Positions 44,308 through 63,787 of a DNA stretch of 64,000 bases are shown here, piece after piece (position 1 is the stretch's first letter; each line of letters begins with the position of its first letter). The notes under the pieces are model-generated. The model saw nothing but the letters and a program-made list of their open reading frames with translations. It was not told where the DNA came from and ran no database searches. This DNA is from Truepera sp. GTDB lineage: Bacteria; Deinococcota; Deinococci; Deinococcales; Trueperaceae. The position numbers and the translations under genes were made by a program. The stretch lies in assembly GCA_965218435.1 (NCBI GenBank), contig CBDCKW010000009.1, positions 128,001-192,000 of the forward strand. The letters run 5' to 3'.

Positions 44308-44411
44308 AGCATTCGGGGGCAGTAGGTCACTAAGACGCCCCCGGTATTTTGCCTAAACTTGTGGCCTGAAGTCTCTGGTATCATCATGCAAGTAGTTTAG
44401 AGGGGACCCTT

Positions 44412-44783: not shown

Positions 44784-44978
44784 TGGGACGATATAGCCGA
44801 GCAACTGCATAAGACGCACCTGACAGATGATGAACAAGCAGCGTCATGACCTTATTTTGATTTTGGTCACTACGCTGCCTATGTATATAGACGAAGTAAA
44901 CGGTTTGAGTTTACGGCACCGGAGCGTCCCTAGCTGCTTGACGCGTCACCTTTCGGCGTGTCGCAGTTTACTTTACGC

Positions 44979-45869: not shown

Positions 45870-45953
45870 GTTGAACTCCTTTGAACCCTGGCATGAGACC
45901 CGCTTACTAACCCTGTTTTGTTTTTATGGCTAATCATACCTCTCACCTCAACG

Positions 45954-46006
45954 AATACTTGCGCCCGCAAGCATCTTACTACTTGTTGCTTGCGGGCGCA
46001 AGTATT
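45954..46006. promoter_or_regulatory. Paired putative MarR operators
   Basis: Perfect 20-bp inverted repeat AATACTTGCGCCCGCAAGCA / TGCTTGCGGGCGCAAGTATT; each arm is CTTGCG-N2-CGCAAG; abuts -10 TAGACT. Confidence 0.78.
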
Positions 46007-46017
46007 AGACTGACTAG

Positions 46018-46515: not shown

Positions 46516-46562
46516 CAAGCTACATCACCTCGAGGCTGTTCTGAGCGCACAGTTTGAAACAG

Positions 46563-47537
46563 TTAGGGCACTGGTGCGCCCCTAGCCGCTTCCATCAAGG
46601 CAAACCATTCGGCGCGGTCTAAAGTCACGTCGTCGGCTTTAACCGAATCGGCGATACGCGAGGCTTTGTGCGTCCCTAAAATCGGCTGAATCCCCGCCGG
46701 ATGCCGTAACAGCCAGCCGAGTGCAACCGCCTCTTTAGTCGTGTTTTTCTGCTCGGCCAGTTCTGCAATCAGCTGGGCGACAGCCCGAACGTTTTCAGGC
46801 TCGTCGGGGCCGGGATCAAAGAGGCGTCCGCCCGCGACCGGCGACCACGCCTGCACGGTGATGTCGTGCAGGCGGCAGTACTCTAAGACGCTCTGCGTGT
46901 TGGCAAACGTCGCAGTGGGCAAGTTGACCAAGACGCCGTTACTAATCATGTACGAATGTAAAAGGTTAAGCTCGAGCTGATTGACGACCAGCGGCAAATC
47001 CAAAGATTTTTTGAGCAGTTCGATCTGCATGGGGCTGTGGTTACTTACGCCAAAGTAGCGCACCATGCCGTTTTTATGCAGGTGTTGCGCCGCCTTCGCC
47101 ACTTCTTCAGGTTCGACCAGCGGATCAGGTCGGTGAAACGCGAGCAGGTCCACGTAATCCGTGCCAAGCCGCTTCAAGCTGCCTTCAACGACTTTAATCA
47201 GATGCTCGGAAGAAAAATCGTAACGTCCCGGTGGGCCGTAGTCAGGGTCGGAACCGATGATGATTCCGGCTTTTTCTTGCAGCACGAGCTTTTCACGCAG
47301 GCCGGGATTTTGCTTTAAGGCGTACCCGATCACCTCATCGGATTTGCCCAGCGTATAGATGTCGGCTAAGTCAATATGGTTGATGCCGTGTTCATACGCC
47401 GCCGTTAGGAGCGTATTGGCGCGGTCTTTAAGGTCTTGACTGACCGGGGTTTTGTCCCAGCTGCCGCCGATATGCCAGGTACCAAAGGCGATCCGGCTGA
47501 CCTCGAGGTCGGTTTGAGCAATTTTATAAGTCTTCAT
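46563..47537 (-). CDS. Aldo/keto reductase (YdhF-like)
   Basis: DLADIY, HRPDPL, GVSNH, QAWSP, WLLRHPA; start at ATG 47537. Confidence 0.9.
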   Translation of the reverse strand: MKTYKIAQTDLEVSRIAFGTWHIGGSWDKTPVSQDLKDRANTLLTAAYEHGINHIDLADIYTLGKSDEVIGYALKQNPGLREKLVLQEKAGIIIGSDPDYGPPGRYDFSSEHLIKVVEGSLKRLGTDYVDLLAFHRPDPLVEPEEVAKAAQHLHKNGMVRYFGVSNHSPMQIELLKKSLDLPLVVNQLELNLLHSYMISNGVLVNLPTATFANTQSVLEYCRLHDITVQAWSPVAGGRLFDPGPDEPENVRAVAQLIAELAEQKNTTKEAVALGWLLRHPAGIQPILGTHKASRIADSVKADDVTLDRAEWFALMEAARGAPVP

Positions 47538-47972
47538 CTGTGCTCCAGTCTCGCTCCACCAAGCCCACAATCTTTACCGGTGAAGCAGTTTTGGAGGAGT
47601 ATACCGCTGCTGAGAATATACAGACCGCGTTAAGTATGGCTGAGCAAGCACAGATACAAAATTGTTTTGAGGAGACAAAAAAAATCGCGCTCATCTCGAA
47701 CGCTTTGATTCCTTTAGCTTACACCCGTATGCGTTATCTGTCAAGATTATGCACCGTTAACCAAATAAAAGTCTGAATACCTTTTAGAACTTCTGAAGAA
47801 CATCGCCCTAACCCCGCTTTGACGGCCCTAAACCTGACAAAACGAGTCTTTGACAGGATTTATTAAGACCTTACCTGAACTCGGCCCTAGCTAACGCAAT
47901 TTGGGAGAACGGTTTCTAACTCCTCTATACGTTACACTGGTCTAATAATTAGCTCTAACCCAGGAGGAGTTT

Positions 47973-49553
47973 ATGCTGAGCCTCGCGTCGTTTGTGGCCG
48001 AACACGCCCGCGTTACCCCTGAGCGCACCGCTGTGCGTTTGGGCGACACCACCTATAGTTACGCTCAGCTGGACACGATGGCCTGCGCCGTGGCGAACTA
48101 CCTCACCGCGCAGGGTCTGCAAGCGGGCGACAAGGTGGCGCTGAGCTGCCCTAACTTACCTTTTTTTCCGGCGGTGTACTACGGCATCTTACGTGCCGGG
48201 ATGGTGGTGGTGCCGCTCAATGTGCTCTTAAAAGCGCCCGAGGTCAGCTATCACCTTAAAGATTCGGACGCGAAAGCTTACTTCGTCTTTGAAGGAACCG
48301 CCGATTTACCCCTGGCGCAGACTGCGGCGGCGGGGTTTGAGAATGCGCCCGAATGCGAACACCTCGTGGTGATGACGGCGGATATGGCCGCGCCGAGCCC
48401 GGTAGACGGTGCCGCGACGTTCAGCCAACTGCTGAACGACTACGCGGTACCTTTTGAACTCGTCCCTCGTGAGGCGGAGGATACCGCCGTCATCCTCTAC
48501 ACCTCGGGGACGACCGGCCAACCCAAAGGCGCTGAACTCACCCACCTCAATCTGGTGATGAACGCGGTCGTCAGCTCGAACTTAGTCCATATCGAGGGCT
48601 TAGAGGGCAAAGATCAGATTTTCTTGGCGGCGCTGCCACTTTTTCACGTCTTCGGCCAAACGTGCGTGATGAACGCGATGTTTTACCTCGGGGCGCAGAT
48701 TGTGCTGCTCCCACGTTTTACGCCCGAAGCGGCGCTGAGCACCATGAAATATGCCGAGGTCACGACGTTCGCCGGGGTTCCGACGATGTACTGGGGACTG
48801 TTAAACGGGGCGAAGTCGTTTCCTGAGGCTGATTTTACGTCCTTAAAAGCGCAGCTCAAAGCGTGCTTGAGCGGCGGCTCGGCGATGCCCGTCGAGATTT
48901 TGCGGCGTTTTGAAGAGGTTTTTGAAGTCGGGATTTTGGAGGGTTATGGGCTCTCAGAAACGAGTCCGGTGGCATGTTTTAACCACTTTGACCGTGAGCG
49001 CAAAGTCGGTACCATCGGCCAGTCGGTGTTTGGCGTCGAGGTCAAAATCGTCGGGGATGACGATGAAGCGGTCTCTACGGGTGAAGCCGGGGAGATTGTG
49101 CTGCGCGGGCACAACGTCATGAAAGGGTATTACGGTCGTCCTGAAGCGACGTTGGAGGCCATGCGCGGCGGCTGGTTTCATACCGGGGACATCGGGACGA
49201 TGGACGACGAGGGCTACGTCACGGTGGTAGACCGGCTGAAAGACATGATTATCCGGGGCGGCTTTAACGTCTATCCGCGCGAGGTCGAAGAGGTGCTGAT
49301 GACGCACCCCGAGGTGTCTTTGGCCGCAGTCGTCGGGGTGCCCGATGAGCAGTACGGTGAGGAGATTCGGGCGTTTGTGGTTTTGGCTGAGGGCGCGAGT
49401 CTCACCCCTGAAACGCTCCGTGAGTGGAGCAAAACGCAGCTCGCGTCGTACAAGTATCCGCGCCAGTTAGAGCTGGTTGAGAGCTTGCCGATGAACGCGA
49501 CGGGTAAGATTTTGCGCCGCGAACTCCGGTCGGCGGCGCAAGCTCCAGTCTAA
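47973..49553 (+). CDS. Long-chain fatty-acid-CoA ligase
   Basis: YTSGTTGQPKG, EGYGLSET, GWFHTGD, GKILRR; SD AGGAGG. Confidence 0.92.
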   Translation: MLSLASFVAEHARVTPERTAVRLGDTTYSYAQLDTMACAVANYLTAQGLQAGDKVALSCPNLPFFPAVYYGILRAGMVVVPLNVLLKAPEVSYHLKDSDAKAYFVFEGTADLPLAQTAAAGFENAPECEHLVVMTADMAAPSPVDGAATFSQLLNDYAVPFELVPREAEDTAVILYTSGTTGQPKGAELTHLNLVMNAVVSSNLVHIEGLEGKDQIFLAALPLFHVFGQTCVMNAMFYLGAQIVLLPRFTPEAALSTMKYAEVTTFAGVPTMYWGLLNGAKSFPEADFTSLKAQLKACLSGGSAMPVEILRRFEEVFEVGILEGYGLSETSPVACFNHFDRERKVGTIGQSVFGVEVKIVGDDDEAVSTGEAGEIVLRGHNVMKGYYGRPEATLEAMRGGWFHTGDIGTMDDEGYVTVVDRLKDMIIRGGFNVYPREVEEVLMTHPEVSLAAVVGVPDEQYGEEIRAFVVLAEGASLTPETLREWSKTQLASYKYPRQLELVESLPMNATGKILRRELRSAAQAPV

Positions 49554-49563
49554 AGCCGTTCAG

Positions 49564-50361
49564 TTATACTTCACGCCAGTCGTTGCTGGTGATGTGTGAA
49601 CCGGCGTGCGGTCCCATCTGGTTCATCCCGCCGTCAACGACCCACGACGCGCCGGTCACGTAGCTCGAGGCGGGCGACGCTAAAAAGGCGATCACGGCGG
49701 CGATCTCGCGGGCGTCGCCGGGGCGTCCGAGCGGGACACCGGGCCGTTTGGCCCCGTGCGGGTCTTGGTCGGTCTGATCGGTCATCGGCGTGGCAATTTC
49801 GCCTGGGGCGACGGTGTTCGCGGTGATGCCGTAGCGCCCAAGCTCGAGCGCCGCCGTTTTGATCAGGCCACCCAACCCATGCTTGGCCGCGTCATAAGCC
49901 GACGACCCGACCCTGGGCTGATGCTCGTGCACGCTCGTTACTGCAATGATGCGGCCCCCGTTATTCGCCGCGACCATCCGCTTCGCGGCCCGCTGAATAC
50001 AGACGAACGCCCCGTCAAGGTCGGTCATCATCGTGTGCCGCCAGGCGTCGTAGCTCATATCAACTAAAGGCGCACTGTTGCCGGTTCCGGCGTTGTTGAC
50101 CAAAACGTCTACGCCGCCAAGTTCGTCGGCTAAAGCGTCAATCACGTCGCCGCAAGCGGGCACGTCGGTCGTGTCGAGGTGTTTGACGATAGCCTTGCGA
50201 CCGAGCGAGCGGACCTCTTCAGCGGTTTCTTGTGCGCCCTGTTCGTCTTCGTGCCAGGTGACGCCGACGTCCATCCCGGCTTGTGCAAGTGCTACCGCAG
50301 TCGCTTTGCCAATGCCCGAGTCCGACGCGGTTACAATCGCCGTACATGGATCAAATGCCAT
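49564..50361 (-). CDS. SDR oxidoreductase (YohF-like)
   Basis: TASDSGIG, NNAG, YDAAK, PGEIAT. Confidence 0.88.
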   Translation of the reverse strand: MAFDPCTAIVTASDSGIGKATAVALAQAGMDVGVTWHEDEQGAQETAEEVRSLGRKAIVKHLDTTDVPACGDVIDALADELGGVDVLVNNAGTGNSAPLVDMSYDAWRHTMMTDLDGAFVCIQRAAKRMVAANNGGRIIAVTSVHEHQPRVGSSAYDAAKHGLGGLIKTAALELGRYGITANTVAPGEIATPMTDQTDQDPHGAKRPGVPLGRPGDAREIAAVIAFLASPASSYVTGASWVVDGGMNQMGPHAGSHITSNDWREV

Positions 50362-50850: not shown

Positions 50851-51933
50851 ATGTTTGTATTTATGTCTGGTCCTATGGCGACGCGGCGCACGTTTTCTAA
50901 ACCTGCTCCCAAAGCTGCGCCGGTACAAAGGTGCCGCTGGACGCCGTTTATCTGGTCGCTCCCTATCCTGCTGGCGGTGCTGACGCTGGCGGCGGGCGTC
51001 GGGACGGTGGCGCTCAGTCCTGCCGAGGTTGCGCGGGCGGTGCTGCACGGTCTGACCGGTCAGCTCTCGGGAACGAGCGACGTGATCGTCTGGCAGATTC
51101 GTTTACCCCGTGTGCTTTTAGCCGCCCTTGTCGGGGGCTCGCTGGCGCTTTCCGGCGCTGCGTATCAGGGCGTGTTTCGTAACCCTCTGGCCGATCCGTA
51201 CCTCTTAGGGGTCGCCAGTGGCGCGGGGCTCGGCGCGACGGTGGCGCTCGTGTTCGGTAGGCGTTTACCGTGGTTTAGCAGCGTCCCGGTGATGAGTTTT
51301 GTTTTTGCACTGCTGGCCGTGGGTTTGACGCTGATTTTGGCGCGGCGGCGGGGCACCTCCTCATCACTTTCTGGGCCGCTCGTCTCGTTGATTTTGGCCG
51401 GGGTGGTGTTGGGCTCGAGCGCCACCGCCCTGACCTCGCTCTTGATGCTCTCGCAACGTGACGACGCCGCGCGCGTCTTGGCGTGGCTCTTGGGCAGTTT
51501 CGGACTCTCGAGCTGGGCGCAGCTCGCGTCGGTGTTGCCCTTTGCGCTGCTGGCGGGCGTTGTGACCTTGGCTTCGGCGCAGGGCCTCAACGTCTTAGGG
51601 TTGGGCGAGGAGAGCGCCGCCGGGCTCGGACTCCGGGTCGAGCGGTTTCGCGCGCTGCTCATCGTTGCCGCGACCCTTTTGGCGGCGGCGGCGGTCAGCG
51701 CAGCGGGGATTATCGGCTTTGCCGGACTGATCGTGCCGCACACGCTGCGGCTGGCGTTCGGCCCGGGTCACCGCACGCTTCTGCCGCTCACCCTCGTTTA
51801 CGGCGCAGTCTTTATGGTGCTCGCCGACCTCGCCGCGCGCACGGTGATTGCGCCCGCCGAGGTACCAATCGGCGTCGTCACGGCGCTGATCGGCGGCCCG
51901 TTTTTTCTCTGGCTCATGCGCCGTAAACTCTGA
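50851..51933 (+). CDS. FecCD/BtuC-family ABC permease (likely cobalamin uptake)
   Basis: IRLPRVLLA, FRNPLADPYLLGV, GIIGFAGLIVPH, PIGVVTALIGGPFF; start uncertain. Confidence 0.9.
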   Translation: MFVFMSGPMATRRTFSKPAPKAAPVQRCRWTPFIWSLPILLAVLTLAAGVGTVALSPAEVARAVLHGLTGQLSGTSDVIVWQIRLPRVLLAALVGGSLALSGAAYQGVFRNPLADPYLLGVASGAGLGATVALVFGRRLPWFSSVPVMSFVFALLAVGLTLILARRRGTSSSLSGPLVSLILAGVVLGSSATALTSLLMLSQRDDAARVLAWLLGSFGLSSWAQLASVLPFALLAGVVTLASAQGLNVLGLGEESAAGLGLRVERFRALLIVAATLLAAAAVSAAGIIGFAGLIVPHTLRLAFGPGHRTLLPLTLVYGAVFMVLADLAARTVIAPAEVPIGVVTALIGGPFFLWLMRRKL

Positions 51934-52101
51934 ATGAAGGGTGGATTTACGCGCTTCAGCCGCTTCGCCCAGTTTTTGAGCCCGTGAGACGCCGTAAACG
52001 CAGTTCTGGTAAGCTTGTCAACTTCTAACTTCTCCGTCCTCTTTTCTGTAACCCGCTAAAAACGCCTCGAGCCGACGGTCATAAAAGCTCAACAGAACCT
52101 A

Positions 52102-52262
52102 GGTTCTGTTGACGTTTTAAGATGTCCACTGCGATTTTTACTGCCGAACACGGGATTAGTCAGAATTCAGTAGCAAGTAGTCAGAAACTCGCAAACCGTT
52201 TTCACTTGTAACGTCCCTCACGAGATCATCTAAGTTTCTCAAGAACAAATGTCAACACAACC
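52102..52262. mobile_element. Candidate MITE or IS remnant
   Basis: Ends GGTTCTGTTGACGTTT / AAATGTCAACACAACC (two mismatches), flanked by TA; no ORF. Confidence 0.55.
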
Positions 52263-52274: not shown

Positions 52275-53060
52275 CTAGTACACCGCCCGTCCGCCCGTCA
52301 GGTCGAAGACAAACCCCGTGTTAAAACTTGCCTCAGGCGATAAAATCCAGAGGGCCAGCGACGCCGTTTCTACAACCGTCCCCAGCCGTTTCATCGGGAT
52401 TTTTGCGGTCATGTACTCGAGCTGTGCCGGGTCTGTGTTCAGGTTGAGGGGGGTGCTGATCACTGCCGGGGCGAGGCCGTTAACGGTAATCCCTGTTTCG
52501 GCAAACTCTTTGCCGACCCCTTTGACGAGGCCGATCACCGCCGCTTTCGTCGAGGTGTAACCGACCATGCCGGGGTTGCCGTCTTTACCCGCAATAGACG
52601 CCATCAGTAAGATGCGGCCGTAGTTGCGCTTTTGCATCTGCACGAGCGCGTATTTGGTCATTAAAAAGCTGCCGAGCTGATTGACCCGCACCACCCGCAT
52701 GTACGTGTTCGTATCGTAGTCCGTGATGTTGGTCGCGGTGGCCCCGGCGATACCGGCACTGTTAAACATGACGTCAAGCCGACCGTGCGTTTGGGTGAGG
52801 GCCTCGAGTTCCGTTTTGACCTGCGCTTCGTCGGTGATGTCTAGGGGTAAGCTCGAGACCGAGCCGTGGCCCTCTAGTTCTGTCAAGGTAGCTGTAAGCG
52901 CGCCTTGGTCACGGTCGGCAATCACGACGTGCGCGCCTTCACGCGCTAAACGTGACGCCACCGCCTTGCCGATGCCGCTTGCGCCGCCGGTCACAACCGC
53001 CACTTGGCCGCTGAACCGCCCTGCAAAGATGCCTGTCGTCGCTGTCTCTGTATCTGTCAT
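52275..53060 (-). CDS. SDR oxidoreductase
   Basis: TGGASGIG, NSAG, YTSTK, FDLTGGRAVY. Confidence 0.9.
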   Translation of the reverse strand: MTDTETATTGIFAGRFSGQVAVVTGGASGIGKAVASRLAREGAHVVIADRDQGALTATLTELEGHGSVSSLPLDITDEAQVKTELEALTQTHGRLDVMFNSAGIAGATATNITDYDTNTYMRVVRVNQLGSFLMTKYALVQMQKRNYGRILLMASIAGKDGNPGMVGYTSTKAAVIGLVKGVGKEFAETGITVNGLAPAVISTPLNLNTDPAQLEYMTAKIPMKRLGTVVETASLALWILSPEASFNTGFVFDLTGGRAVY

Positions 53061-53064
53061 CTCT

Positions 53065-54180
53065 TCACCAATCCGTAACGGAACCGTCCGCGAGGCGAAA
53101 CTGCGGCGTTTCCCACGAGCCGTCGTAGAGCTTGTCCTCGAGCGCGTCTTCGTCTAGTTCAATCCCCAAACCCGGTTTGTCAGACACCGCGATGTAGCCG
53201 TCAACGATCTCAAAAGGTTCTTTGAGGTAACCCTCGCCCAGCGTAAAGTGCTCTTGCGCTAAAAAGTTGGGGATGCAGGCGTCGAGTTGCAAGGACGCCG
53301 CCAGCGAAATCGGCCCGAGCGGGCAGTGCGGCGCGACGGCGGCGTAGTAGCACTCGGCCATCGCCGCAATTTTACGCAGCTCAAAGATGCCGCCCGCGTG
53401 CGAGATGTCGGGTTGCAAGATCGCCGCCGCCTGTTTCTCCAACACTTCCCGAAAGGCCCATTTAGTAAATAACCTCTCGCCGGTGGCGATAGGGATGCTT
53501 GTACTCCGGGCGACGCGGGCCAACTCGTCTACGTTTTCCGGGAGCACGGGCTCTTCGATAAATAAGGGGTGCGAGGGCTCGAGCGCCTGCGCCAGCCGAA
53601 TAGACATCGCGGGGCTGCAGCGTCCGTGAAAGTCAATCCCAATGTCAATGTCCGGCCCGAGCACCTCCCGTAATCCTGCAAAGTGCGCCGCGACCGTCTC
53701 GACCTTCGCGGGCGTATCAACGATGTTAAAGCCTTCTTTCAAGCCGACCTTGTACACCGTAAACCCACTCTCACGACTGACCTGCGCGAGCTCGATGTAG
53801 TCGCCGTAACTCTCGGCGCTGAGCCAGCCGTACATGCGGATTTTGTCGCGGACCGCGCCGCCTAAAAGTTTGTACACGGGTACGCCCAGCTCTTTGGCGG
53901 TGATGTCCCACAGGGCGTGTTCGATGCCGGACAAGGCGCTCGTCAAAATCGGGCCGCCCCGGTAAAACTGTCCCCGGTAGATGGCCTGCCAGTGGTGTTC
54001 GATGCGGCGCGGGTCTTGCCCGATCAGGTAACGTCCGATTTCGTGAACCGCCGCCGCGACCGTTTGCGCGCGCCCTTCGACGATAGGCTCACCCAACCCG
54101 ACGATGCCCGCGTCGGTATGAACCTTTAAGAAGAGCCAGCGGGGGCGGACGAAGATGGTCTCGAGTTGGGTGATTTTCAC
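53065..54180 (-). CDS. dgoD: Galactonate dehydratase (mandelate racemase subgroup)
   Basis: MKIT..PRWLFLKV, GEPIVEGRA, FYRGGPIL, DFHGR, FIEEP, ATGER, APHCPLGPI. Confidence 0.88.
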   Translation of the reverse strand: MKITQLETIFVRPRWLFLKVHTDAGIVGLGEPIVEGRAQTVAAAVHEIGRYLIGQDPRRIEHHWQAIYRGQFYRGGPILTSALSGIEHALWDITAKELGVPVYKLLGGAVRDKIRMYGWLSAESYGDYIELAQVSRESGFTVYKVGLKEGFNIVDTPAKVETVAAHFAGLREVLGPDIDIGIDFHGRCSPAMSIRLAQALEPSHPLFIEEPVLPENVDELARVARSTSIPIATGERLFTKWAFREVLEKQAAAILQPDISHAGGIFELRKIAAMAECYYAAVAPHCPLGPISLAASLQLDACIPNFLAQEHFTLGEGYLKEPFEIVDGYIAVSDKPGLGIELDEDALEDKLYDGSWETPQFRLADGSVTDW

Positions 54181-54222
54181 TTTGGACTCCTGGTAGTTCG
54201 TATGGTTTATATTTCATATGGC

Positions 54223-54996
54223 TCACTCGGCAAAGCGGGCGCTGGTGCCGCCGTCAATCACGATCTCTGTGCCGGTAAGATAGCGCGCCTCGTCACTCGC
54301 CAAAAATGCCACCAAGTTGCCGACGTCTTCAGGCTCACCGATACGGCCGACGGGGAGGCTCGAGCGCACCTTTTCCCGCGCCGCTTCGGGGTCTTTTGCG
54401 TCGGCAAACCCCTGCAACACCGCGTCGGATAAAATCCAACCGGGACTCACCGCTACTACCCGGATACCCTTGTTGCCCCAATCGAGCGCCAAGCTTTTCG
54501 TCAGCCCGACCAGCCCTGCTTTGGTCGCGCTGTAAGGGAACATGTTATAGGTCGTAAGCGTCGCGTGGACGCTGGCGATGTTGATGATGACGCCGCCGCC
54601 CCGAGAGACCATTTCAGGTAACGTGTATTTGCAGAGGAGCCACGCGCCCTTGAGGTCAACGGCCATCCCGCTGTCCCACTCTTCGCTCGTCATCTCGGCG
54701 GCGTTGTAGGCGAGGTTGCGCCCGGCGTTGTTGACCAAAATATCGAGCCCACCAAACTCTTTGGCAACTTGGACTGCCGCTGCAACTTCGGTTTCCTGAC
54801 TGACGTCGGTTTGTACAAAGACCGCGTTTGCTCCCGTAGCCTGCAGAGTTTGCGCGGCGGCTTCTCCCGCGTCGGCGTCAATCTCTGCCAGCACGACCGC
54901 CGCGCCTGCCTGGGCCAATCGCACGGCGATAGCCTTGCCAATCCCGCGCCCTGCCCCGGTCACTAACGCGACTCGTCCTGCTAACGACCGGCTCAC
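54223..54996 (-). CDS. SDR oxidoreductase
   Basis: TGAGRGIG, NNAG, YSATK. Confidence 0.9.
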   Translation of the reverse strand: MSRSLAGRVALVTGAGRGIGKAIAVRLAQAGAAVVLAEIDADAGEAAAQTLQATGANAVFVQTDVSQETEVAAAVQVAKEFGGLDILVNNAGRNLAYNAAEMTSEEWDSGMAVDLKGAWLLCKYTLPEMVSRGGGVIINIASVHATLTTYNMFPYSATKAGLVGLTKSLALDWGNKGIRVVAVSPGWILSDAVLQGFADAKDPEAAREKVRSSLPVGRIGEPEDVGNLVAFLASDEARYLTGTEIVIDGGTSARFAE

Positions 54997-56252
54997 AGTG
55001 ACCGCAGCGGCAACCCCGTCGCCGCTTCAATAGTAAGCAACCGGTTGTACTTGGCGAGGCGTTCGGACTGCTGGATTGACCCCACCTTGATGAAGTCGCC
55101 CTGCCAGCCCACCGCTAGGTCAGCGAGCCAGTCATCCTCGGTTTCGCCGCTGCGGGCACTGACGACGACCTGCCAACCGTGTGACCGGGCCAAAGTAAGC
55201 GCCTCGGCAGCTTCAGTCAGGGTGCCGATCTGATTGACCTTTAAGAGCAGCGCGTTGGCAGCTTCGGCGTCAACAGCTTGTTGAATACGCGCCGGATTGG
55301 TACAGAGCAGGTCGTCACCTAAAACGAGAACATCGTGACCTACAGCGGCCTGTAACGCTGTCCAGTGCGCCCAGTCTTCCTCGGCAAGTCCGTCCTCGAG
55401 ACTGACAACTGGGTAGTCACGGAGCCAGGTTTGCAGCTTTGAGACCATCTCCGCCCCGGTCAAGCTTTTGTTGCTCAGCCGGTACCAACCGTTTTCGTAA
55501 AAGTGGCTCGAGGCCACGTCGAGGGCGAGGGCCACATCTTCGCCGGGTCTGAGACCGGCTGCTTGAATTGCCGCTACCGCGTCTTCAATCATCGCTTCTT
55601 CGCTCCCGAAGTCGGGTGCGAGACCCCCCTCGTCAGCTTTAAGTGGCCGTGAGTGGTACTTGGTTCGGACGAGCTGAACCGCACTTTGCACCACGGCGTA
55701 GGTCATCTCTAACGACTCGGCGACGGTTCCAGCTGACTGCGGCACCAGCAAAACATCTTGAATCACGACCTGACCCCCCGCGTGTTTGCCGCCGCTAAAG
55801 AGGTTGACTGTAAGGCGTGGGAGAAAGTCGAGCCGCGTACCTGCCAGCTTAGCGAACTGCTCATAAAGCGGTTCTGACCGCTCTAGAGCTTGTGCCCGTG
55901 CGAACGCCAGCGAGACGCCGAGAATAGCGTTCGCCCCAAGCCGCGATTTGTGGGGTGTACCGTCGAGCTGAATAAGGTGACGGTCCAGGTCGGCCTGGGT
56001 CGCAAACGTTTTACGGCTGACGCTCCTGAATATCTCACCGTCAACGTTTTGAGCAGCTTTGCGGCACCCCAAGCCGCCGTAACGCCTGTCGCCGTCACGG
56101 AGTTCCAACGCTTCAGCGCGTCCGGTAGACGCACCCGACGGCACCGACGCAGTTGCAGAAATGCCGCTCGAGAGTTCACACGTCACCTGAACGGTCGGGC
56201 GTCCCCGGCTGTCTAAAATCTCTAACGCGTGTAGACTCGTAATCTCAAACAC
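54993..56252 (-). CDS. Enolase paralog with altered active-site motifs
   Basis: EILDSRGRPTV, VPSGASTG, LGANAILGVS, EDG, GDDL, KVNQIGT; deviant NLFSGGKHA, QDVL, SARSGET. Confidence 0.88.
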   Translation of the reverse strand: MFEITSLHALEILDSRGRPTVQVTCELSSGISATASVPSGASTGRAEALELRDGDRRYGGLGCRKAAQNVDGEIFRSVSRKTFATQADLDRHLIQLDGTPHKSRLGANAILGVSLAFARAQALERSEPLYEQFAKLAGTRLDFLPRLTVNLFSGGKHAGGQVVIQDVLLVPQSAGTVAESLEMTYAVVQSAVQLVRTKYHSRPLKADEGGLAPDFGSEEAMIEDAVAAIQAAGLRPGEDVALALDVASSHFYENGWYRLSNKSLTGAEMVSKLQTWLRDYPVVSLEDGLAEEDWAHWTALQAAVGHDVLVLGDDLLCTNPARIQQAVDAEAANALLLKVNQIGTLTEAAEALTLARSHGWQVVVSARSGETEDDWLADLAVGWQGDFIKVGSIQQSERLAKYNRLLTIEAATGLPLRSL

Positions 56253-57273
56253 GCGTCAGCCCTGCGGTAAAACGAGACACGAGTTGGGAAACAGTCCGTG
56301 GTTGATCGTTCATCAGCTCGACCACGACCTCCTTTTGGCGCTGTTTTTCCCCTTTGCTTAAATACTCGAGCGGCGAACGCCCCGCGACGCGGGCCAAGAG
56401 GCAGCCGAGCGTGTGCCTTACGGCGTAGGGCTCGAGCGCTCCGGCAAAGGGAACGTCACCCAGTGCATTTTGGTAGTGCGCCCAAAAATCCAGCGTTGCC
56501 TGCCCAAACGCAGTCCTCGAGTCCGGCAGATGATGCGCTTTACTCAGCAGATGCGTCATCCCGAAACCCAGATCGAAGGCGGGATCGCCGAAGTGAATCA
56601 CTTCGTGGTCTAACAAGATCAGCTTGTCCCGGTAAACCAGTACGTTTTTAGGGCTGTAGTCGCCGTGGACCAGGGTCAGTAACCGGTTGCGGGTGTCCTC
56701 AACGAGCACGTGTAAAAAGTCGGCGGCTTCAGGAACCTGTTCAGCGGCGTAAAGGTAGTAGGGCTCGAGCCGTAAATTCTTAAAATACTGCCTGTCGGCA
56801 AACATTGCGGCGACCTCTCCCGACCGCTCATTTTCCAAAAAAGCGTTGCGGTGAACGTGTCCCAAAAGGATGGCAAACTGCGCGACGTGCTCACCTTTTA
56901 CGTCGCCCTGTAAGAGCACCGTCTTCCAGTTTTCATGAGGTTGAGCCACGGCTTGCATCGCCAAAACATGCTCGGTTTCGTCTTCAAAGACGAGCGGTGT
57001 GATGCTGCCCGGCGGGGCGTAACGGGCCAAAGCTTGCATCCCCAGCGCCTCGTAGTGAATCCGCTCAGGGCTGCTAAACCAGTCTACGGCGACGCGCAGC
57101 TTTGCCAGAGCTTGCTTTAACACCCACGCTTCTCCCTCGGAACGCTCCAAGAGCACGGTCCGGTTCGATACGCCGCCTTTCAGTACCGTCATCGTCATTT
57201 TTACGCCCGACTTGGTAACGCCGCGCCCGAACAGATACTCGCGCAGCTCCTCGGGACGTTCGATGTCTATCAT
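56245..57273 (-). CDS. APH/methylthioribose-kinase-like phosphotransferase
   Basis: GGVSN, VLKQ, HGDYSPKN, LDHE, GDPAFD. Confidence 0.85.
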   Translation of the reverse strand: MIDIERPEELREYLFGRGVTKSGVKMTMTVLKGGVSNRTVLLERSEGEAWVLKQALAKLRVAVDWFSSPERIHYEALGMQALARYAPPGSITPLVFEDETEHVLAMQAVAQPHENWKTVLLQGDVKGEHVAQFAILLGHVHRNAFLENERSGEVAAMFADRQYFKNLRLEPYYLYAAEQVPEAADFLHVLVEDTRNRLLTLVHGDYSPKNVLVYRDKLILLDHEVIHFGDPAFDLGFGMTHLLSKAHHLPDSRTAFGQATLDFWAHYQNALGDVPFAGALEPYAVRHTLGCLLARVAGRSPLEYLSKGEKQRQKEVVVELMNDQPRTVSQLVSRFTAGLTRV

Positions 57274-57287
57274 CTGGTGCCTGTCAT

Positions 57288-58136
57288 CTACACCTCGGCT
57301 CGAAAGGTATTGGTCAGGCGGCCCAGCTTTTCAATCTCGACCGTGACCTCATCGCCCGCTTTAAGCCAGATTGCCGGGTCATCGCCGAAGATCACGCCTT
57401 CAGGGGTTCCGGTCAAGATCACGTCGCCGGGTTCCAGGGTCAGATAGCGGCTGATATAACTGACAAGTTGTTTTGTCGAAAAAACCATGTCGGCGGTGCT
57501 CGAGTCCTGCCGCAGCTCACCGTTTAACCAGCAGCGAATCCGCAAGGCGTCCGGGTCGCCTACTTCGTCGGCTGTTACCAGATACGGCCCCAGGGGTAAA
57601 AAGCCGTCCAAGGTTTTGCCGAGCAGCCACTGTCCGGTCAACATCTGCAGATCGCGCGCGCTCAGATCGTTGCCGTTACAGTAGCCGAACACGTAGTCGT
57701 GCGCCTCACCTTCGCTGACGTCTTTGGCACGCCTGCCGATGACGATAGCAAGTTCAGCTTCGTAATCCGCTTGCTTCGTAACTTCGGGAAGGGTGATGAC
57801 GTCTCCGTTTCCGGCGAGCGCGTTGGCATATTTGGAAAAGAGGATCGGGGTTTGAGGAACGGCCATCCCCGCTTCGGCGGCGTGGCGGCGGTAGTTGAGG
57901 CCGACGCAGACGATTTTGCCCGGATTGGGTACACAAGGAGCGAGGGTTAAGGTCGCCTCGTCTAAGAAGTCGGTTGCCCCAGCTACAAAGGTTTCTAACG
58001 CGGTTTGGGCTCTGCTCCCACCTTGCAGCAACGCCAGCACCGTTTGCGGCACCCCTTCAGGCGCGCTCACCGTTTCCACGACGCCGTTTTCCGTCTGCAC
58101 AGCTAGACTGTGATCTTGTAAACTCAGTAATTTCAT
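57288..58136 (-). CDS. Fumarylacetoacetate hydrolase family protein
   Basis: CVGLNY, DYEAEL, NDLSARD, GDVILTGTP. Confidence 0.92.
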   Translation of the reverse strand: MKLLSLQDHSLAVQTENGVVETVSAPEGVPQTVLALLQGGSRAQTALETFVAGATDFLDEATLTLAPCVPNPGKIVCVGLNYRRHAAEAGMAVPQTPILFSKYANALAGNGDVITLPEVTKQADYEAELAIVIGRRAKDVSEGEAHDYVFGYCNGNDLSARDLQMLTGQWLLGKTLDGFLPLGPYLVTADEVGDPDALRIRCWLNGELRQDSSTADMVFSTKQLVSYISRYLTLEPGDVILTGTPEGVIFGDDPAIWLKAGDEVTVEIEKLGRLTNTFRAEV

Positions 58137-58510: not shown

Positions 58511-59245
58511 ATGAAACGTCAACCAAGCAGATGGCAAGATACTTACCCAGCCGAAAAGATAGGAGAAGTCAAGGGCACAAAAAGTAAAAATGTTTTGGTT
58601 TACGGCTATCTACATACCATGATCCTTAAAGGTAAGTTGGTACCGGGTTCGCGTGTAACGGCCGACCAGATTGCAGCGCAGCTCGGCGTTTCTCCTATTC
58701 CGGTGCGTGAAGCACTTTTGCGGCTCGAGGCCGAAGGGTTCGTGACCCTAGAGCCTTACGTCGGGGCAAAAGTCACCGAGCTGCGCGAGAGTGAAGTGCA
58801 AGAGGTGTTTGGCCTTTTAGGGTCGCTCGCGCTGATCTGTGGGCGTTCGGCGTGTTTACGGCTTAGCGACGCCGACCTAATCCGGATTGAAACACTTTTA
58901 GCAGATATGGAAAACTGTGCTTACGACCCTGAAGCGTGGTCTTTACGCAACAAAGAACTGCACCTTTTTATCGGCGAAAAGTCCGAGCACAAGTTGGCCC
59001 TGAGGATGCTGCGATTGGCGCTCGACCATTGGGACAGGTTGTGGCGGCATTTTTTAGAAGAGGTCTTTTCTCAGCGTATCCCCGCGGCTCACGCCGAGCA
59101 CGTGCAGATGTTGGCCGCCTTTAGGGCGCGCAGCCCCAAACGACTTGAAGAGGTCGTTCGCGTTCATAACGAAAAAGCCTTACACGCCTATCTAACTCAC
59201 CTCGCAACTAACTCAGCACAGACGCTGCAGCCTACCCCTGACTAA
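58511..59245 (+). CDS. GntR/FadR-family regulator
   Basis: LGVSPIPVREALLRLEAEG; FCD-type N..LH...EH. Confidence 0.9.
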   Translation: MKRQPSRWQDTYPAEKIGEVKGTKSKNVLVYGYLHTMILKGKLVPGSRVTADQIAAQLGVSPIPVREALLRLEAEGFVTLEPYVGAKVTELRESEVQEVFGLLGSLALICGRSACLRLSDADLIRIETLLADMENCAYDPEAWSLRNKELHLFIGEKSEHKLALRMLRLALDHWDRLWRHFLEEVFSQRIPAAHAEHVQMLAAFRARSPKRLEEVVRVHNEKALHAYLTHLATNSAQTLQPTPD

Positions 59246-59544: not shown

Positions 59545-60384
59545 CTAAACATATTTCAGGTAACGCGCTTTGACCAGCTCGAGCACCTCGGCCCCGGGCT
59601 TTTGCCACAGAGCTTCGTTAAAGATTTCGCACTCGATAGGGCCGGTGTAACCGGCGTCTTCGGCGGCTCCGCGCAGGGCGCGAAGCTCGATCCAACCGTC
59701 GCCCATCATGCCGCGGCCGTTAAGTACGTCGGGCAAAGGGGTAACCCAGTCGCAGATGTGAAACCCCAAGAGGTGGGGCTGCGCCTTGGCAATCTCGTGA
59801 TAGACCTCGGGGTCCCACCACACGTGAAACGTATCAACAATGACGCCGATGGGCACCGTCAGCTCGGGAAAGTCAGCATTAAGTTGTGTTGCGAGGGCGT
59901 TGGCCTGCGCGAGCGTGCAGATGACGTTACGGTCGGCGCAGTACAGCGGGTGCAGAGGTTCGATGTCTAGTTTGACCCCGAGCTCAGCCGCGTAGGGAAC
60001 GACCTCAGCAACGCCGTCATAAACCATCTGCCGCGCCGCCCCCAGGTCTCTGTCAGGCAAGCCGCCGCAGACCAGCACTAAAGTGTCCGTACCGAGAACC
60101 GCAGCTTCGTCAACTGCGCGAAAGTTGTCGTCAATCCGCCGCCGCCGTTCTCGGGAGGACTTTGCCGGAAACATGCCGCCGCGACACAGACTCGAGACCC
60201 GTAACCCCGCCGCTCGTACCAGTCTGGCACTCTGCTGCACGCCTTGCTCGTGTACCTTATCGCGCCACAAGCCGATCCAGCCGAGCCCCGCTGCGGCGCA
60301 GCCTTCCACAGCTTCTTTGAGCGTCCACGGTTTCGTGGTGTACTGGTTTAACGAGAGCCGTGACAAGTCTGGACGCTCACCCAT
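59545..60384 (-). CDS. Sugar-phosphate isomerase/epimerase family (xylose-isomerase-like TIM barrel)
   Basis: IEPLHP, DTFHVWWD, FHICDW, GDGWIEL, ECEIF. Confidence 0.85.
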   Translation of the reverse strand: MGERPDLSRLSLNQYTTKPWTLKEAVEGCAAAGLGWIGLWRDKVHEQGVQQSARLVRAAGLRVSSLCRGGMFPAKSSRERRRRIDDNFRAVDEAAVLGTDTLVLVCGGLPDRDLGAARQMVYDGVAEVVPYAAELGVKLDIEPLHPLYCADRNVICTLAQANALATQLNADFPELTVPIGVIVDTFHVWWDPEVYHEIAKAQPHLLGFHICDWVTPLPDVLNGRGMMGDGWIELRALRGAAEDAGYTGPIECEIFNEALWQKPGAEVLELVKARYLKYV

Positions 60385-61543
60385 GAGCCGCCCTTGTGCG
60401 CTGCAAGAAAGTGGTCATTCGCTCCGCCGCCAGCTCCGGGCGCGCCAGCACACCGGCTTGGTCGGCAAGCTTAAAGAGTTCGGCCAGGTGAGGCGTGGTG
60501 CGGACGGCCTCGAGGCCCCCCACCACCTTAAATTGGTCTTGGTAACCGTTCAGATAGGCGAGGAAGACGAGGCCCGTTTTGTAGTGATAGGTCGGCGCTT
60601 CAAAGATGTGCCGCGCCAGCGGTACGGTCCGCGCTAAGAGCGCGTCGTAACGCGCTACGTCGCCCGCGTCAAGCGCGTGTAGGGCCGCTGCCGCAACAGG
60701 AAAGATCGCGTCAAAGATACCCAGCAGTCCGTGGCTGTAGCCCTGCTCGTCCCCCTTGATCAGCACGTCGTAGTTAAAGTCGTCGCCGGTATAGAGCTTG
60801 ACGCCCGGCGGCAGCTTGCGCCGCAACGTCACCTCTTTGTCGGCGTCTAAAAGAGAAATTTTAATCCCGTCAACCTTGTCTCGGTGCCCTTCGATCAGGC
60901 TGAGGCAGGTCTCCATCGCTTCTTGCAAGTCGGGTGAGCCCCAGTAGCCCTCGAGGGCCGGGTCAAACATCGCCCCAAGCCAGTGGAGGATGACCGGTTG
61001 CGACACCTGTGAGAGGATACGGCTATAGACTGTTAGGTAATCGTCGGCGTGCTCCGCAGTCGCGGCTAAAGCGCGGCTCGCCATCAAGATAAGCTGTCCG
61101 CCTCTTGCCTCGATAAACTCACACTGTCTTTCATAGGCGGTAGCCACGTCGTCTAAGCTGAGGTTGTCATAGGTCTTCAGCTGGTCGGTTCCCGCACCGC
61201 AGGCGATACGCCCGCCGACGCTTCTGGCTTCTATCAGCGAGCGGCTGATGAGTTCTTGAGCCACCGGCCAGTTCAGCCCCATGCCGCGCTGCGCCGTGTC
61301 CATCGCCTCGGCGACCCCGAAACCGTAAGACCAGAGGTGGTGGCGGTACCTTAGAGTGGCGTTCCAGTCGAGAACGGCGGGCTTACCGGGGCCGTTATCA
61401 GCCTCTGGGTCGGCGACCACGTGCGCCGCAGCGAAGAGTATCCGGCTCCGAAACGGCTCCTCTACGGGTAGCGGTGCTGAGCTGCCTGAAAGCTGATAGC
61501 GTTCAGACGCACCACCCGGTTTAGGAAGCTGTACCGTCGTCAC
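60377..61543 (-). CDS. DUF993 family protein (DHDPS-like barrel)
   Basis: FAAAHVVADP, AEAMDTAQRGMGL, LHWLG, GIKISLL, YTGDDFNY; GTGA overlap start. Confidence 0.85.
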   Translation of the reverse strand: MTTVQLPKPGGASERYQLSGSSAPLPVEEPFRSRILFAAAHVVADPEADNGPGKPAVLDWNATLRYRHHLWSYGFGVAEAMDTAQRGMGLNWPVAQELISRSLIEARSVGGRIACGAGTDQLKTYDNLSLDDVATAYERQCEFIEARGGQLILMASRALAATAEHADDYLTVYSRILSQVSQPVILHWLGAMFDPALEGYWGSPDLQEAMETCLSLIEGHRDKVDGIKISLLDADKEVTLRRKLPPGVKLYTGDDFNYDVLIKGDEQGYSHGLLGIFDAIFPVAAAALHALDAGDVARYDALLARTVPLARHIFEAPTYHYKTGLVFLAYLNGYQDQFKVVGGLEAVRTTPHLAELFKLADQAGVLARPELAAERMTTFLQRTRAAHG

Positions 61544-62715
61544 GGTGCTCCCTCCGCAGACAAAGCCGCGGCTAATTCGGGAACCTCGAGCCAGCGCCGC
61601 TCTTTCCACGATCTAAGTCCGAGTTCGGCGAGCTGGACCCCTTTAGCCCCTTCTAGTAAGGTATGGTCAAAGGGCGTGTCGCAGACAACGTGGGTCAAAA
61701 ACAGCTCCCACTGCGTCTTAAACCCGTTGTCGAAGTTGGTGTTGTCAGGAACGACCTGCCAGTCGCCGTAAAAGTCAATCGCGTTGGGAACGTCCGGATT
61801 CCAGGTCGGTTTGGGGGTTACGCTGCGGTGCTGTACCCGGCATTCTCGCAGTCCGGCAACGGCGCTCCCTTCGGTGCCGTCAACTTGAAAGCTGACCAAC
61901 TCATCGCGGTAAACACGGGTACACCATGACGAGTTGATCTGCGCGACGATACCGCCCCCGAGTTCAAACATCGCGTAAGCGGCGTCGTCGGCGGTCGCGG
62001 CGTAAGGTTCGCCGGCCTCGTCGTAACGCTCACCGATATGGGTTGCCCCCAGGCACAGCACCGAACGTACCGGGCCGAAGAGGTGATCTAACACGTAGCG
62101 CCAGTGGCAGAGCATATCGACGATAATGCCGCCGCCCTCAGCTTTACGGTAGTTCCAGCTCGGGCGCTGCGCGGCTTGCCAGTCCCCTTCAAAAACCCAG
62201 TAACCGAACTCGCCGCGGACCGACAAAATACGTCCGAAAAAGCCGCTGTCAACTAGCCTCTTAAGTTTCAAAAGTCCTGGAAGAAAGCGCTTGTCTTGAA
62301 CTACCCCGTGTTTGATTCCGGCAGCGTCGGCGAGGCGGACCAGCTCGAGCGCGTCTGCGAGCGTCTCGGCAACCGGTTTTTCGGTGTAGACATGTTTCCC
62401 GGCAGCGATCGCCTGTTTGAGGTTGGCGGCGCGGTGCTGCGTTAAAACGGCGTCGAAGTAGACGCTGTTAGCAGGGTCCGCTAAACACGCGTCGAGGTCG
62501 GTACTCCAGCGCGTCACCCCGGTTTCAGCGGCGAGCTGCTCGAGTTTAGCCTCACTGCGTCCGACGAGTACCGGGTCGGGGAGCAGCTTATCTCCGTTTG
62601 GCAGCGCCAGCCCACCCTGATCTATCAGCGCCTTGACCGACCGGAGCAAGTGCTGATTTTTGCCCATCCTGCCGGTCACGCCGTTCATGACGATCCCGAT
62701 TCGCTCCTCAGCCAT
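61540..62715 (-). CDS. Gfo/Idh/MocA oxidoreductase
   Basis: MNGVTGRMG, GKHVYTEKP, EFGYWVFEG. Confidence 0.9.
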   Translation of the reverse strand: MAEERIGIVMNGVTGRMGKNQHLLRSVKALIDQGGLALPNGDKLLPDPVLVGRSEAKLEQLAAETGVTRWSTDLDACLADPANSVYFDAVLTQHRAANLKQAIAAGKHVYTEKPVAETLADALELVRLADAAGIKHGVVQDKRFLPGLLKLKRLVDSGFFGRILSVRGEFGYWVFEGDWQAAQRPSWNYRKAEGGGIIVDMLCHWRYVLDHLFGPVRSVLCLGATHIGERYDEAGEPYAATADDAAYAMFELGGGIVAQINSSWCTRVYRDELVSFQVDGTEGSAVAGLRECRVQHRSVTPKPTWNPDVPNAIDFYGDWQVVPDNTNFDNGFKTQWELFLTHVVCDTPFDHTLLEGAKGVQLAELGLRSWKERRWLEVPELAAALSAEGAP

Positions 62716-63787
62716 GAGTCCTCGTCCGGTCGGCCGCTCTCTGGGCCGTCAAAGCCAGTTCTGCCGCCTTAAACGTATGGGCCTGCGTCATCGCCTGTTC
62801 TGTGCGGTTAAGGCAGTCCAAGATAAGCTCACCGAAAAAGGGAAAGCCGACCTTTCCTGCGACCGGCACATGGTATTCGTCTTCCGACGTAACCAGATAA
62901 AGGTGGTCTTTACTTCCCTCACGGGCCACGTCGGTGTGTTTGCGCAGCTCGAGCGTCCCCTCGGTGCCGAGGACGAAAAGACGCCCGTCGCCCCACGTGC
63001 TTAAGCCCTGCGGCGTAAACCAGTCCACCCGGAAGTAGTTCGAGGTGCCGTTGTCGGCGACTAAGCTGGCTTCGCCGAAGTCCTCGAGCTCTAGATACTC
63101 AAGGTGCGCGAAGTTTTCGACTCGGGCGTTGGTTACAGCTGCGTCTTCTGCCCTACTGTAGAAAAGAAACTGTTCGATCTGATGACTGCCGATGTCGCAG
63201 AGAATTCCCCCATAGTGCTCTTTTTTATAAAACCAGTCCGGCCTGGGCGTCTGGCCTATTTTGTGAGGTCCCAAACCGAGCACCTGAAGCACGTGGCCGA
63301 TGACCCCCTCACCGATGAGCTGACCGGCAAACACTGCACTCTCGACGTGCAGGCGCTCGCTGTAATAGACCAGGTGCTTTTTGCCCGTCTCGGCAACCTT
63401 TTGCCGCGCCGCCTCGAGCTGCGCGAAGGTGGTAAAGGGCGCTTTGTCTACAAAATAATCTTTGCCCGCGTCCAGCACCCGGAGGTCGAGCGCGCCCCGT
63501 TGGTCGGGAATGATCGCGGACGTGACCAGCTTGAGCTCGGGATCGTCGAGAATAGTAGTTTCGTCCGCCGCAATGTCAACGTCGGGAAACCGTCCCTTAA
63601 ACGCCGTCGTTTTAGCGGGATCAGGGTCAAAAACAGTGCGAAGGGTTCCCCCGGCTTGGATCAACCCTTCGCACTGCCCGTAGATATGACCGTGGTCAAG
63701 GCCGATGGCTGCGAACGGAAACTCCCCGGGTTCGCATACGGGCTCAGGCGGTCCTAAAGGCTCGAGCGCCGAAGGCAGACAGCTCAT
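62708..63787 (-). CDS. Gfo/Idh/MocA oxidoreductase
   Basis: GLDHGHI, DKAP, GGILCDIGSHQ; ATGA overlap start. Confidence 0.88.
   Translation of the reverse strand: MSCLPSALEPLGPPEPVCEPGEFPFAAIGLDHGHIYGQCEGLIQAGGTLRTVFDPDPAKTTAFKGRFPDVDIAADETTILDDPELKLVTSAIIPDQRGALDLRVLDAGKDYFVDKAPFTTFAQLEAARQKVAETGKKHLVYYSERLHVESAVFAGQLIGEGVIGHVLQVLGLGPHKIGQTPRPDWFYKKEHYGGILCDIGSHQIEQFLFYSRAEDAAVTNARVENFAHLEYLELEDFGEASLVADNGTSNYFRVDWFTPQGLSTWGDGRLFVLGTEGTLELRKHTDVAREGSKDHLYLVTSEDEYHVPVAGKVGFPFFGELILDCLNRTEQAMTQAHTFKAAELALTAQRAADRTRTHG

Follow-up and report, generated by a model that had tools for sequence, protein, structure and literature searches.

A variant enolase coupled to a small-molecule kinase in a sugar-acid operon of Truepera sp., with a putative route from hexonates to phosphoenolpyruvate

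The six-gene operon analyzed here, located on the minus strand at positions 52275–58136 of a 64,000-nucleotide (nt) stretch of the Truepera sp. contig CBDCKW010000009.1 (hereafter, the window), encodes a small-molecule kinase and a variant enolase among enzymes of sugar-acid metabolism. Its closest described counterparts are the non-phosphorylative diketo-hydrolase routes for L-rhamnose (LRA1-6), L-fucose and pentoses (the “Watanabe pathway”), which, like the operon, bring together an acid-sugar dehydratase, an SDR and an FAH hydrolase. On 6-deoxyhexoses, these dehydrogenase-plus-hydrolase routes form lactate. The known routes stop at lactate or glycolate, without a kinase or an enolase, whereas the operon has both; they also differ from the operon in that its DgoD-type dehydratase predicts glycerate as the short acid and that it contains no lactonase gene. 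According to PMC12994016 and PMC13406643, the diketo-hydrolase routes yield pyruvate and a short hydroxy acid, which is glycolate in the dehydrogenase-plus-hydrolase route for pentoses (PMC12994016), and the title of a reference cited in PMC13406643 has the mammalian fucose route turning L-galactose into lactate and glycerate.

The second group of counterparts consists of the glycerate 2-kinase and enolase of the lower serine cycle and the non-phosphorylative Entner-Doudoroff pathway, where the chemistry is the same as that proposed here, namely, from a hydroxy acid to a 2-phospho acid to phosphoenolpyruvate (PEP), and hydroxypyruvate-reductase-like dehydrogenases adjoin the kinase–enolase pair or are fused to it. 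The kinase of the operon differs from the glycerate 2-kinases (class II MOFRL and class I GlxK/GarK) in that its fold is that of APH/MtnK, not that of a glycerate kinase, and that glycerate is only its putative substrate. The variant enolase shares with the canonical enolase (EC 4.2.1.11) its fold, the ligands of Mg, the catalytic Lys base and Glu acid, and the residues that bind phosphate and carboxylate; it differs in that it always occurs as an additional, kinase-coupled copy and belongs to a separate clade with Asp and Ala/Val replacements.

We propose, with a probability of about 0.5, that the operon encodes an oxidative non-phosphorylative route from a hexonate to pyruvate and glycerate, and that glycerate would then be converted to PEP by the kinase–enolase pair; we infer the substrates, the products, the order of the steps and the enantiomer of glycerate from the analyses presented below. 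The catabolic step had been predicted to be apparently undescribed, and a literature search, with most subscription journals outside its coverage so that absence is unproven, identified no published account of the pair. A paper in which L-2-phosphoglycerate served as a test substrate of CpgD (PMC12275187) proved irrelevant to the pair.

Operon organization and sugar-acid enzymes

Open reading frame calling within the window recovered, at the expected positions and on one strand, the full gene content of the original prediction (FAH hydrolase, APH-like kinase, enolase paralog, SDR, DgoD and SDR), with the six genes tightly packed head to tail. The operon and its flanking elements are, in the order of transcription of the operon:

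58511–59245, plus strand: divergent GntR/FCD regulator (GntR at 1.7e-14, FCD at 7.8e-14)
57288–58136, minus strand: P0001, FAH-family hydrolase (282 aa; FAA_hydrolase PF01557 at 1.1e-76, 257.7 bits)
56245–57273, minus strand: P0002, APH/MtnK-fold small-molecule kinase (342 aa; PF01636 at 4.5e-12, 46.7 bits)
54993–56252, minus strand: P0003, variant enolase (419 aa; PF03952 at 1.9e-44, PF00113 at 1.1e-76)
54223–54996, minus strand: P0004, SDR oxidoreductase (257 aa; adh_short_C2 at 8.8e-64)
53065–54180, minus strand: P0005, DgoD-type acid-sugar dehydratase (371 aa; MR_MLE; NF010624 match)
52275–53060, minus strand: P0006, second SDR oxidoreductase (261 aa; adh_short at 2.8e-50)
52089–52112, minus strand: terminator-like hairpin 3' of the last gene (10-bp stem followed by a T-run)

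The junctions, when read directly, contain the overlaps that had been predicted between the kinase, enolase and SDR genes: the kinase stop and the GTG start of the enolase overlap by 8 nt (GTGTTTGA), and the enolase stop and the GTG start of P0004 by 4 nt (GTGA). These three genes are translationally coupled. The FAH and kinase genes are separated by 14 nt. The GntR/FCD gene is, given its position, the probable regulator of the operon. Promoter- and terminator-type sites in the region are not more numerous than in shuffled controls, so that the hairpin at 52089–52112 is a weak terminator candidate.

The top NCBIfam match of P0001 is 2,4-didehydro-3-deoxy-L-rhamnonate hydrolase (NF053535), and this protein is likely to be a 2,4-diketo-3-deoxy-acid hydrolase. 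P0005 passes the cut-off of the galactonate dehydratase family NF010624 (502 bits against 311, over residues 2–371), and its closest solved relative is 3rr1, a “putative D-galactonate dehydratase” (4.4e-113); judging from these matches, P0005 is a dehydratase of the DgoD type, with D-galactonate as the putative substrate. P0004 passes the cut-off of the NCBIfam glucose 1-dehydrogenase subfamily (243 against 215). Homologs of both SDRs are encoded in another Deinococcota locus, L026, where the homolog of P0004 (64% identical) follows the enolase and that of P0006 is 75% identical.

The kinase–enolase pair

Enolase is regarded as catalyzing a single reaction, and the paralog described here is named phosphopyruvate hydratase by annotation pipelines, given that it passes the NCBIfam cut-off (426 bits for P0003 against the TIGR01060 cut-off of 300). 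The Truepera genome (4.8 Mb, 9 contigs) encodes a second protein matching TIGR01060, at 672 bits, which adjoins pyruvate kinase and is the canonical enolase. P0003 has the Enolase_N plus Enolase_C two-domain architecture and is 47% identical to the canonical enolase of its own genome and 65–70% identical to the paralogs from other phyla. The four motif changes noted in the original prediction are all present, and the metal ligands and the catalytic Lys are retained, also as predicted. In the alignment with the canonical enolase, P0003 (motifs VSARSGETED, IQDVL, FSGGKHAGG and QQSERL) has IQDV in place of MQEF, SARSGET in place of SHRSGET, FSGGKHAGG in place of INGGKHADN and QQSER in place of SRSDR, with the Glu to Asp substitution at D166 and the substitution of Ala for the His of SHRSGET at A366. 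The retained residues include the metal ligands D245, E286 and D313, the Lys base K338, the general acid E208, as well as K389 and R367/S368, and each of these is conserved in at least 97% of the 84 aligned paralog and canonical sequences.

The replacements are uniform across the paralogs. The substrate-contacting Glu position is occupied by Asp in 63 of 63 paralogs and by Glu in all 21 canonical enolases from the same genomes, 20 of which contain the SHRSGET motif. Among the 62 long kinase-adjacent paralogs, 44 have SARSGET, 16, from Acidobacteriota, have SVRSGET and 2 have SARSGDT, with His present in none. The top 120 homologs of P0003, which are 64–100% identical to it, come from Deinococcota, Phycisphaerae, Verrucomicrobia, Anaerolineales, Chloroflexi and Spirochaetales, and are called enolase wherever the source gives a name, include 117 sequences with SARSGET and none with SHRSGET. 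In total, 27 positions are fixed differently in the paralogs and the canonical enolases, including N to S before the GG loop, F to V, F to L, E to H at SSHF, a second His to Ala change within the STGxHEA segment of the lid, as well as Arg newly placed at positions 18 and 146; the new basic residues conserved in the paralogs are R18, R146 and H250. In the phylogenetic tree, which included every second paralog sequence (31 of 62) plus that of the window, a single branch with a length of ~1.8 changes per site and a Shimodaira-Hasegawa-like approximate likelihood ratio test (SH-aLRT) support of 100 splits 32 paralogs from 21 canonical enolases. The TIGR01060 scores across 45 genomes likewise fall into separate modes, 385–456 bits for the paralogs and 626–705 bits for the canonical enolases. 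With Asp in all 63 paralogs, Glu in all 21 canonical enolases and the His lost in all 62 kinase-adjacent paralogs, the motif changes are, by this comparison of sequences, not due to chance, and they mark the paralogs as a separate clade. Such a conserved, kinase-coupled clade, with its substrate pocket remodeled, implies one of two alternatives: glycerate kinases of a new fold class that have an enolase of their own, or a hitherto undescribed way for some other hydroxy acid to enter at PEP.

The coupling of the kinase to the enolase was assessed from the best 80 kinase loci, of which 72 extend 1300 nt or more downstream of the kinase and are thus informative. A same-strand paralog follows the kinase in 64 of these 72 loci, in several phyla, with a median gap of ~20 nt (100 nt or less in 53 of the 64). 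Eight loci are exceptional, and for the five of these whose genomes were searched, a paralog-type enolase is encoded elsewhere in the genome. Overall, a paralog-type enolase was found in all 45 kinase-bearing genomes searched, partial or split in four of them, and fusions to enolase domains make up 13 of the 21 longer kinase homologs, so that the predicted co-conservation of the two proteins is well supported. More than 500 species-level genomes carry the pair. Within Deinococcota (151 genomes, each at least 90% complete), the kinase was matched at E ≤ 1e-40 only in the Truepera genome and in G124, a genome from the same order; at this threshold, it is absent from the only other genome of the same genus in this set and from all 12 family members searched. 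In the tree, the paralog from the window groups with a sequence from a Deinococcota metagenome, among sequences from Chloroflexota and Planctomycetota. Given this sparse distribution and the position in the tree, the operon is probably an acquired accessory module.

The kinase family comprises 548 cluster representatives at E ≤ 1e-30, with 55–64% identity across phyla, and relatives of the kinase were found in 513 of the 528 stretches of species genomes that were matched; a search of the ESM Atlas returned only generic “phosphotransferase” names. The catalytic HGDYSPKN loop and the metal-binding Asp of LLDHE (H203, G204, D205, N210 and D222 of P0002) are invariant in 22 homologs. The AlphaFold model of P0002, with a predicted local distance difference test (pLDDT) value of 90.6, has as its nearest folds the S-methyl-5-thioribose (MTR) kinases, with template modeling (TM) scores of 0.80–0.82, followed by PsiK and the lanthipeptide kinase LxmK. 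The MTR kinase MtnK (PDB 2pyw, 2olc) is the nearest relative in both sequence and fold, but P0002 is only 14–16% identical to the MTR kinases, its match to the S-methyl-5-thioribose kinase family TIGR01767 (34 bits) falls far below the cut-off of 275, and there are no methionine-salvage genes near the operon. Neither of the classical glycerate kinase domains (class I, PF02595; class II MOFRL, PF05161) was detected in P0002, which matched APH-type families only. The LxmK-type phosphorylate-then-eliminate systems (PDB 9dk3) combine an APH-fold kinase with a lyase-type partner, as is the case here, although LxmK matches the fold less well; there, it is the phosphate that leaves, whereas the retained phosphate site of the enolase implies that, here, the O-2 phosphate would stay and the C3 group would leave.

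Apart from the 13 enolase fusions, the 21 longer kinase homologs include three fused to a D-2-hydroxyacid dehydrogenase, two fused to 3-hydroxyacyl-CoA-dehydrogenase-type domains, one each with a GH127 domain and with DUF4432, and one consisting of APH alone. In P0246, the kinase is followed by the enolase within a single protein, with 52% identity to P0002 and 64% to P0003. The fusions to the dehydrogenase-type, GH127 and DUF4432 domains (P0247, P0254–P0256, P0258, P0259 and P0262) hint at upstream steps that feed the kinase. The predicted kinase–enolase complex received a score of 0.01, which gives no verdict and is used here neither for nor against an interaction.

Proposed route and competing explanations

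In the proposed route, the input would be a hexose or a hexonate, probably D-galactonate. One of the SDRs would serve as the aldose dehydrogenase, the DgoD-type P0005 would dehydrate the hexonate, the other SDR would act as a 4-dehydrogenase, oxidizing the product at C4, and the FAH hydrolase P0001 would split the diketo acid into pyruvate and glycerate (D-glycerate in the case of D-galactonate). The APH-fold kinase P0002 would then phosphorylate glycerate at O-2, and the variant enolase P0003 would dehydrate the 2-phospho acid to PEP. Within this scheme, D-glycerate is tentatively favored as the intermediate, and L-glycerate appears rather unlikely.

The combination of a DgoD-type dehydratase, SDRs and an FAH hydrolase follows the dehydrogenase-plus-hydrolase logic of the pentose route, which supports the formation of glycerate by the operon, and further support comes from the independent assembly of the same FAH/dehydratase logic beside the pair in two other genomes. 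In Dictyobacter kobayashii (locus L003), the genes for GntR-FCD, FAH, a Zn-dependent alcohol dehydrogenase and an MR_MLE protein similar to gluconate and galactonate dehydratases are found together with those for the kinase and the enolase. G124 encodes a version of the pair from a distant subfamily, with 34% identity in the kinase and 44% in the enolase but with SARSGET and VQDF kept; in its locus (L107; G124:C2:1-18000, positions 4730–13717), the gene order is reversed, with the enolase at 5728–7023, the kinase at 4730–5731 and a 4-nt overlap between them. There, the pair follows an FAH hydrolase and an SDR, and lies opposite an SDR, an MR_MLE dehydratase, a metallo-beta-lactamase-fold protein, which is a possible lactonase, and DUF4432. 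Additional FAH-containing loci, L026 and L030, which are of Deinococcota metagenome origin, encode LacI, FAH, the kinase, the enolase and two SDRs, with an ATP-binding cassette (ABC) sugar transporter also present in L030. Thus, sets of FAH, dehydratase and dehydrogenase genes recur beside the pair in three lineages.

A different kind of context also points to glycerate. D-2-hydroxyacid dehydrogenases similar to glyoxylate/hydroxypyruvate reductases account for 5 of 48 upstream and 1 of 28 downstream neighbors of the pair and form a 7-locus cluster among the 80 loci; these enzymes, next to the kinase or fused to it, support the proposed route given that hydroxypyruvate would give D-glycerate. 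Because the Mg ligands, the catalytic Lys and Glu, and the Arg/Ser/Lys residues that bind phosphate and carboxylate in the active site are all kept, a 2-phospho-3-hydroxy acid would be the natural substrate type of the variant enolase and dehydration its natural reaction. The D-specificity of the dehydrogenase partner also agrees with the conversion of such an acid to PEP. Clustering of the neighbors across the 80 loci revealed no third gene broadly conserved with the pair, which is consistent with the input being common and the product, such as PEP, a central one. The contribution of the window consists in the FAH/DgoD context, its independent recurrence with a second subfamily, and the count of coexisting housekeeping enzymes given below. 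The location of the pair directly after an FAH-type hydrolase in a DgoD-type operon is a context that singles out, as the candidate substrate, the C3 acid which the hydrolase would release, and points to galactose or galactonate as the candidate growth substrate.

Several other neighbors are found at single loci, namely, a KDPG-type aldolase, a LarA-like protein, a DUF1537 acid-sugar kinase, RhaT and Dak1/Dak2. An apparent 14-locus cluster of neighbors was discarded because it represents an antisense open reading frame over the kinase gene. In nine Bryobacterales loci (L007, L008, L014, L016, L031, L039, L047, L080 and L081), and in this lineage only, a Wzy_C (O-antigen ligase) membrane protein of ~405 aa is encoded 5' of the kinase, on the same strand, with the gene ending ~5 nt before that of the kinase; this neighbor may reflect lineage synteny or be a transporter-like partner.

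Several observations weigh against the route to PEP via glycerate. To begin with, the complete gene set of the non-phosphorylative diketo-hydrolase type is represented in the operon by the dehydratase, two SDRs and the hydrolase, with the lactonase missing, and the score of P0001 is below its family cut-off (212 bits against 500). Furthermore, the dehydratase-SDR-FAH set is not the general partner of the pair, with FAH found within 10 kb of the pair in only 3 of the 80 loci (L003, L026 and L030). The active site of the enolase raises a separate difficulty. In the enolase of C. aurantiacus, according to PMC4450660, 2-phosphoglycerate (2-PGA) and PEP are held by Glu165, Glu206, Lys338, Arg367 and Ser368. 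Glu165 of this protein corresponds to the invariant Asp of the paralogs. We take the same position to be Glu168 of the yeast enolase, and, in yeast enolase mutants, changes at the Glu168 and His373 sites cripple 2-PGA turnover.

The strongest of the opposing observations is redundancy with housekeeping enzymes, which we surveyed in 45 pair-bearing genomes. A canonical enolase (626–705 bits, or broken pieces with equal bits per position, as in G026, where the gene is frameshifted, and in G035, where it is split across contigs) is encoded in 42 of these genomes and was not found in G005, G016 and G037, all of which are metagenome assemblies. Classical glycerate kinases coexist with the pair in 44 of the 45 genomes, either of the MOFRL type (29 genomes) or of class I (15 genomes), with no overlap between the two sets and only G027 lacking both. 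The Truepera genome itself encodes the canonical enolase and a class II MOFRL glycerate kinase, the latter away from the operon, and no class I enzyme. These numbers reject the possibilities that the pair fills in for a missing glycerate kinase or that the paralog replaces the housekeeping enolase. Both housekeeping steps are encoded in 41 of the 45 genomes; therefore, a plain route from D-glycerate via 2-PGA to PEP would be doubly redundant, which is hard to reconcile with a dedicated enolase that is so deeply conserved.

The same redundancy favors an alternative explanation, the one put forward in the original prediction but still doubtful, under which the intermediate is not 2-PGA: the kinase would form a 2-phospho-3-hydroxy acid unusable by the housekeeping enolase, with the variant enolase specialized for it. 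This acid could be a 2-phospho-aldonate or tetronate of greater length, or else some other 3-substituted acid, and the product would be PEP or a PEP analog. The Glu to Asp and His to Ala/Val changes are invariant, being shared even by the distant G124 subfamily, several other changes are also toward smaller residues (N to S, F to V, F to L), and the length of the branch leading to the clade attests to its age and separation, all of which would be compatible with such a specialization. In the same vein, D-2-hydroxyacid dehydrogenases of the type found next to the pair also reduce 2-keto-aldonates to 2(R)-aldonates, according to PMC12994016, and the DUF1537 acid-sugar kinase and the LarA-like protein each adjoin the pair in one locus. 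However, an additional enzyme would be required for a PEP analog, and the pair has no such conserved partner. Moreover, the FAH contexts predict a C3 acid derived from hexonates, the dehydratases of the DgoD and gluconate/galactonate types point to hexonates of the D-series, the contexts converge on D-glycerate, and the general-acid Glu of the enolase is kept.

In more general terms, it is conceivable, and we suggest this tentatively, that the enolase subgroup, supposedly one of a single function, has in the kinase-coupled enolases its first branch acting on another substrate. This would be a hydroxy acid beyond the reach of normal glycolysis, be it L-glycerate, a longer 2-phospho-aldonate or a 3-substituted lactate such as sulfolactate, considered jointly, with PEP reached via ATP-dependent 2-phosphorylation. 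If so, thousands of “enolase” labels in databases would name the wrong reaction.

It appears improbable that the kinase and the enolase jointly function as an ATP-assisted aldonate dehydratase that acts upstream, in parallel to DgoD, and feeds the SDR and FAH enzymes, with 2-phospho-aldonate converted to a phosphoenol-3-deoxy acid and then to a 2-keto-3-deoxy acid. Such a function would explain the coupling to SDR and FAH, the neighbors resembling 2-ketoaldonate reductases and an enlarged C3 pocket, but the dehydratases of the enolase superfamily, including the one encoded in the same operon, work without ATP, and the pair has no conserved partner that would take off the enol phosphate.

Another scenario, and quite an improbable one, is that the leaving group at C3 is not a hydroxyl. 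For instance, PEP would arise, by phosphorylation followed by the loss of sulfite or sulfate, from 3-sulfolactate, itself derived from sulfopyruvate or a 6-sulfo sugar acid, or from 3-O-sulfo-glycerate. A bulkier group would suit the lost His and the shortened Glu as well as the new conserved basic residues of the paralogs, an FAH route acting on a 6-substituted hexonate would presumably yield a 3-substituted lactate, and a sulfatase is encoded ~13 kb upstream of the operon. Conversely, the general acid E208 is invariant, which suits a poor leaving group such as hydroxide, and neither a sulfite exporter nor a sulfite oxidase was detected among the 76 immediate neighbors scanned or in the recurrent clusters.

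Finally, it is very hard to credit that the paralog is a decaying or non-catalytic copy, with the adjacency to the kinase being incidental: although two residues important for 2-PGA turnover are lost, the paralogs remain 65–70% identical across phyla, the metal and acid/base residues are invariant, and the adjacency in 64 of the 72 loci is complemented by fusions.

Flanking regions of the window

Upstream of the operon, starting within the window at 59545–63787 and continuing beyond it (L084; G000:C9:191000-209000), there is a same-strand sugar island that encodes a xylose-isomerase-like TIM-barrel protein, DUF993, three Gfo/Idh/MocA oxidoreductases, a cupin, ABC permeases and a binding protein, a BNR-repeat protein, a sulfatase and a second TIM-barrel protein. 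This island looks like a cluster for the utilization of glycosides by the oxidoreductive mechanism or of sulfated glycans. On the other side of the operon, positions 37446–50361 of the window contain a dense run of oxidoreductase genes, among them three aldo/keto reductases, four SDRs and a Zn-dependent dehydrogenase, together with an AMP-binding ligase. In addition, the segment at 51000–51999, with an AT skew of -0.40 and a GC content of 0.66, lies over a FecCD-type permease gene (50851–51933), and the skew probably reflects the ordinary codon composition of a membrane protein.

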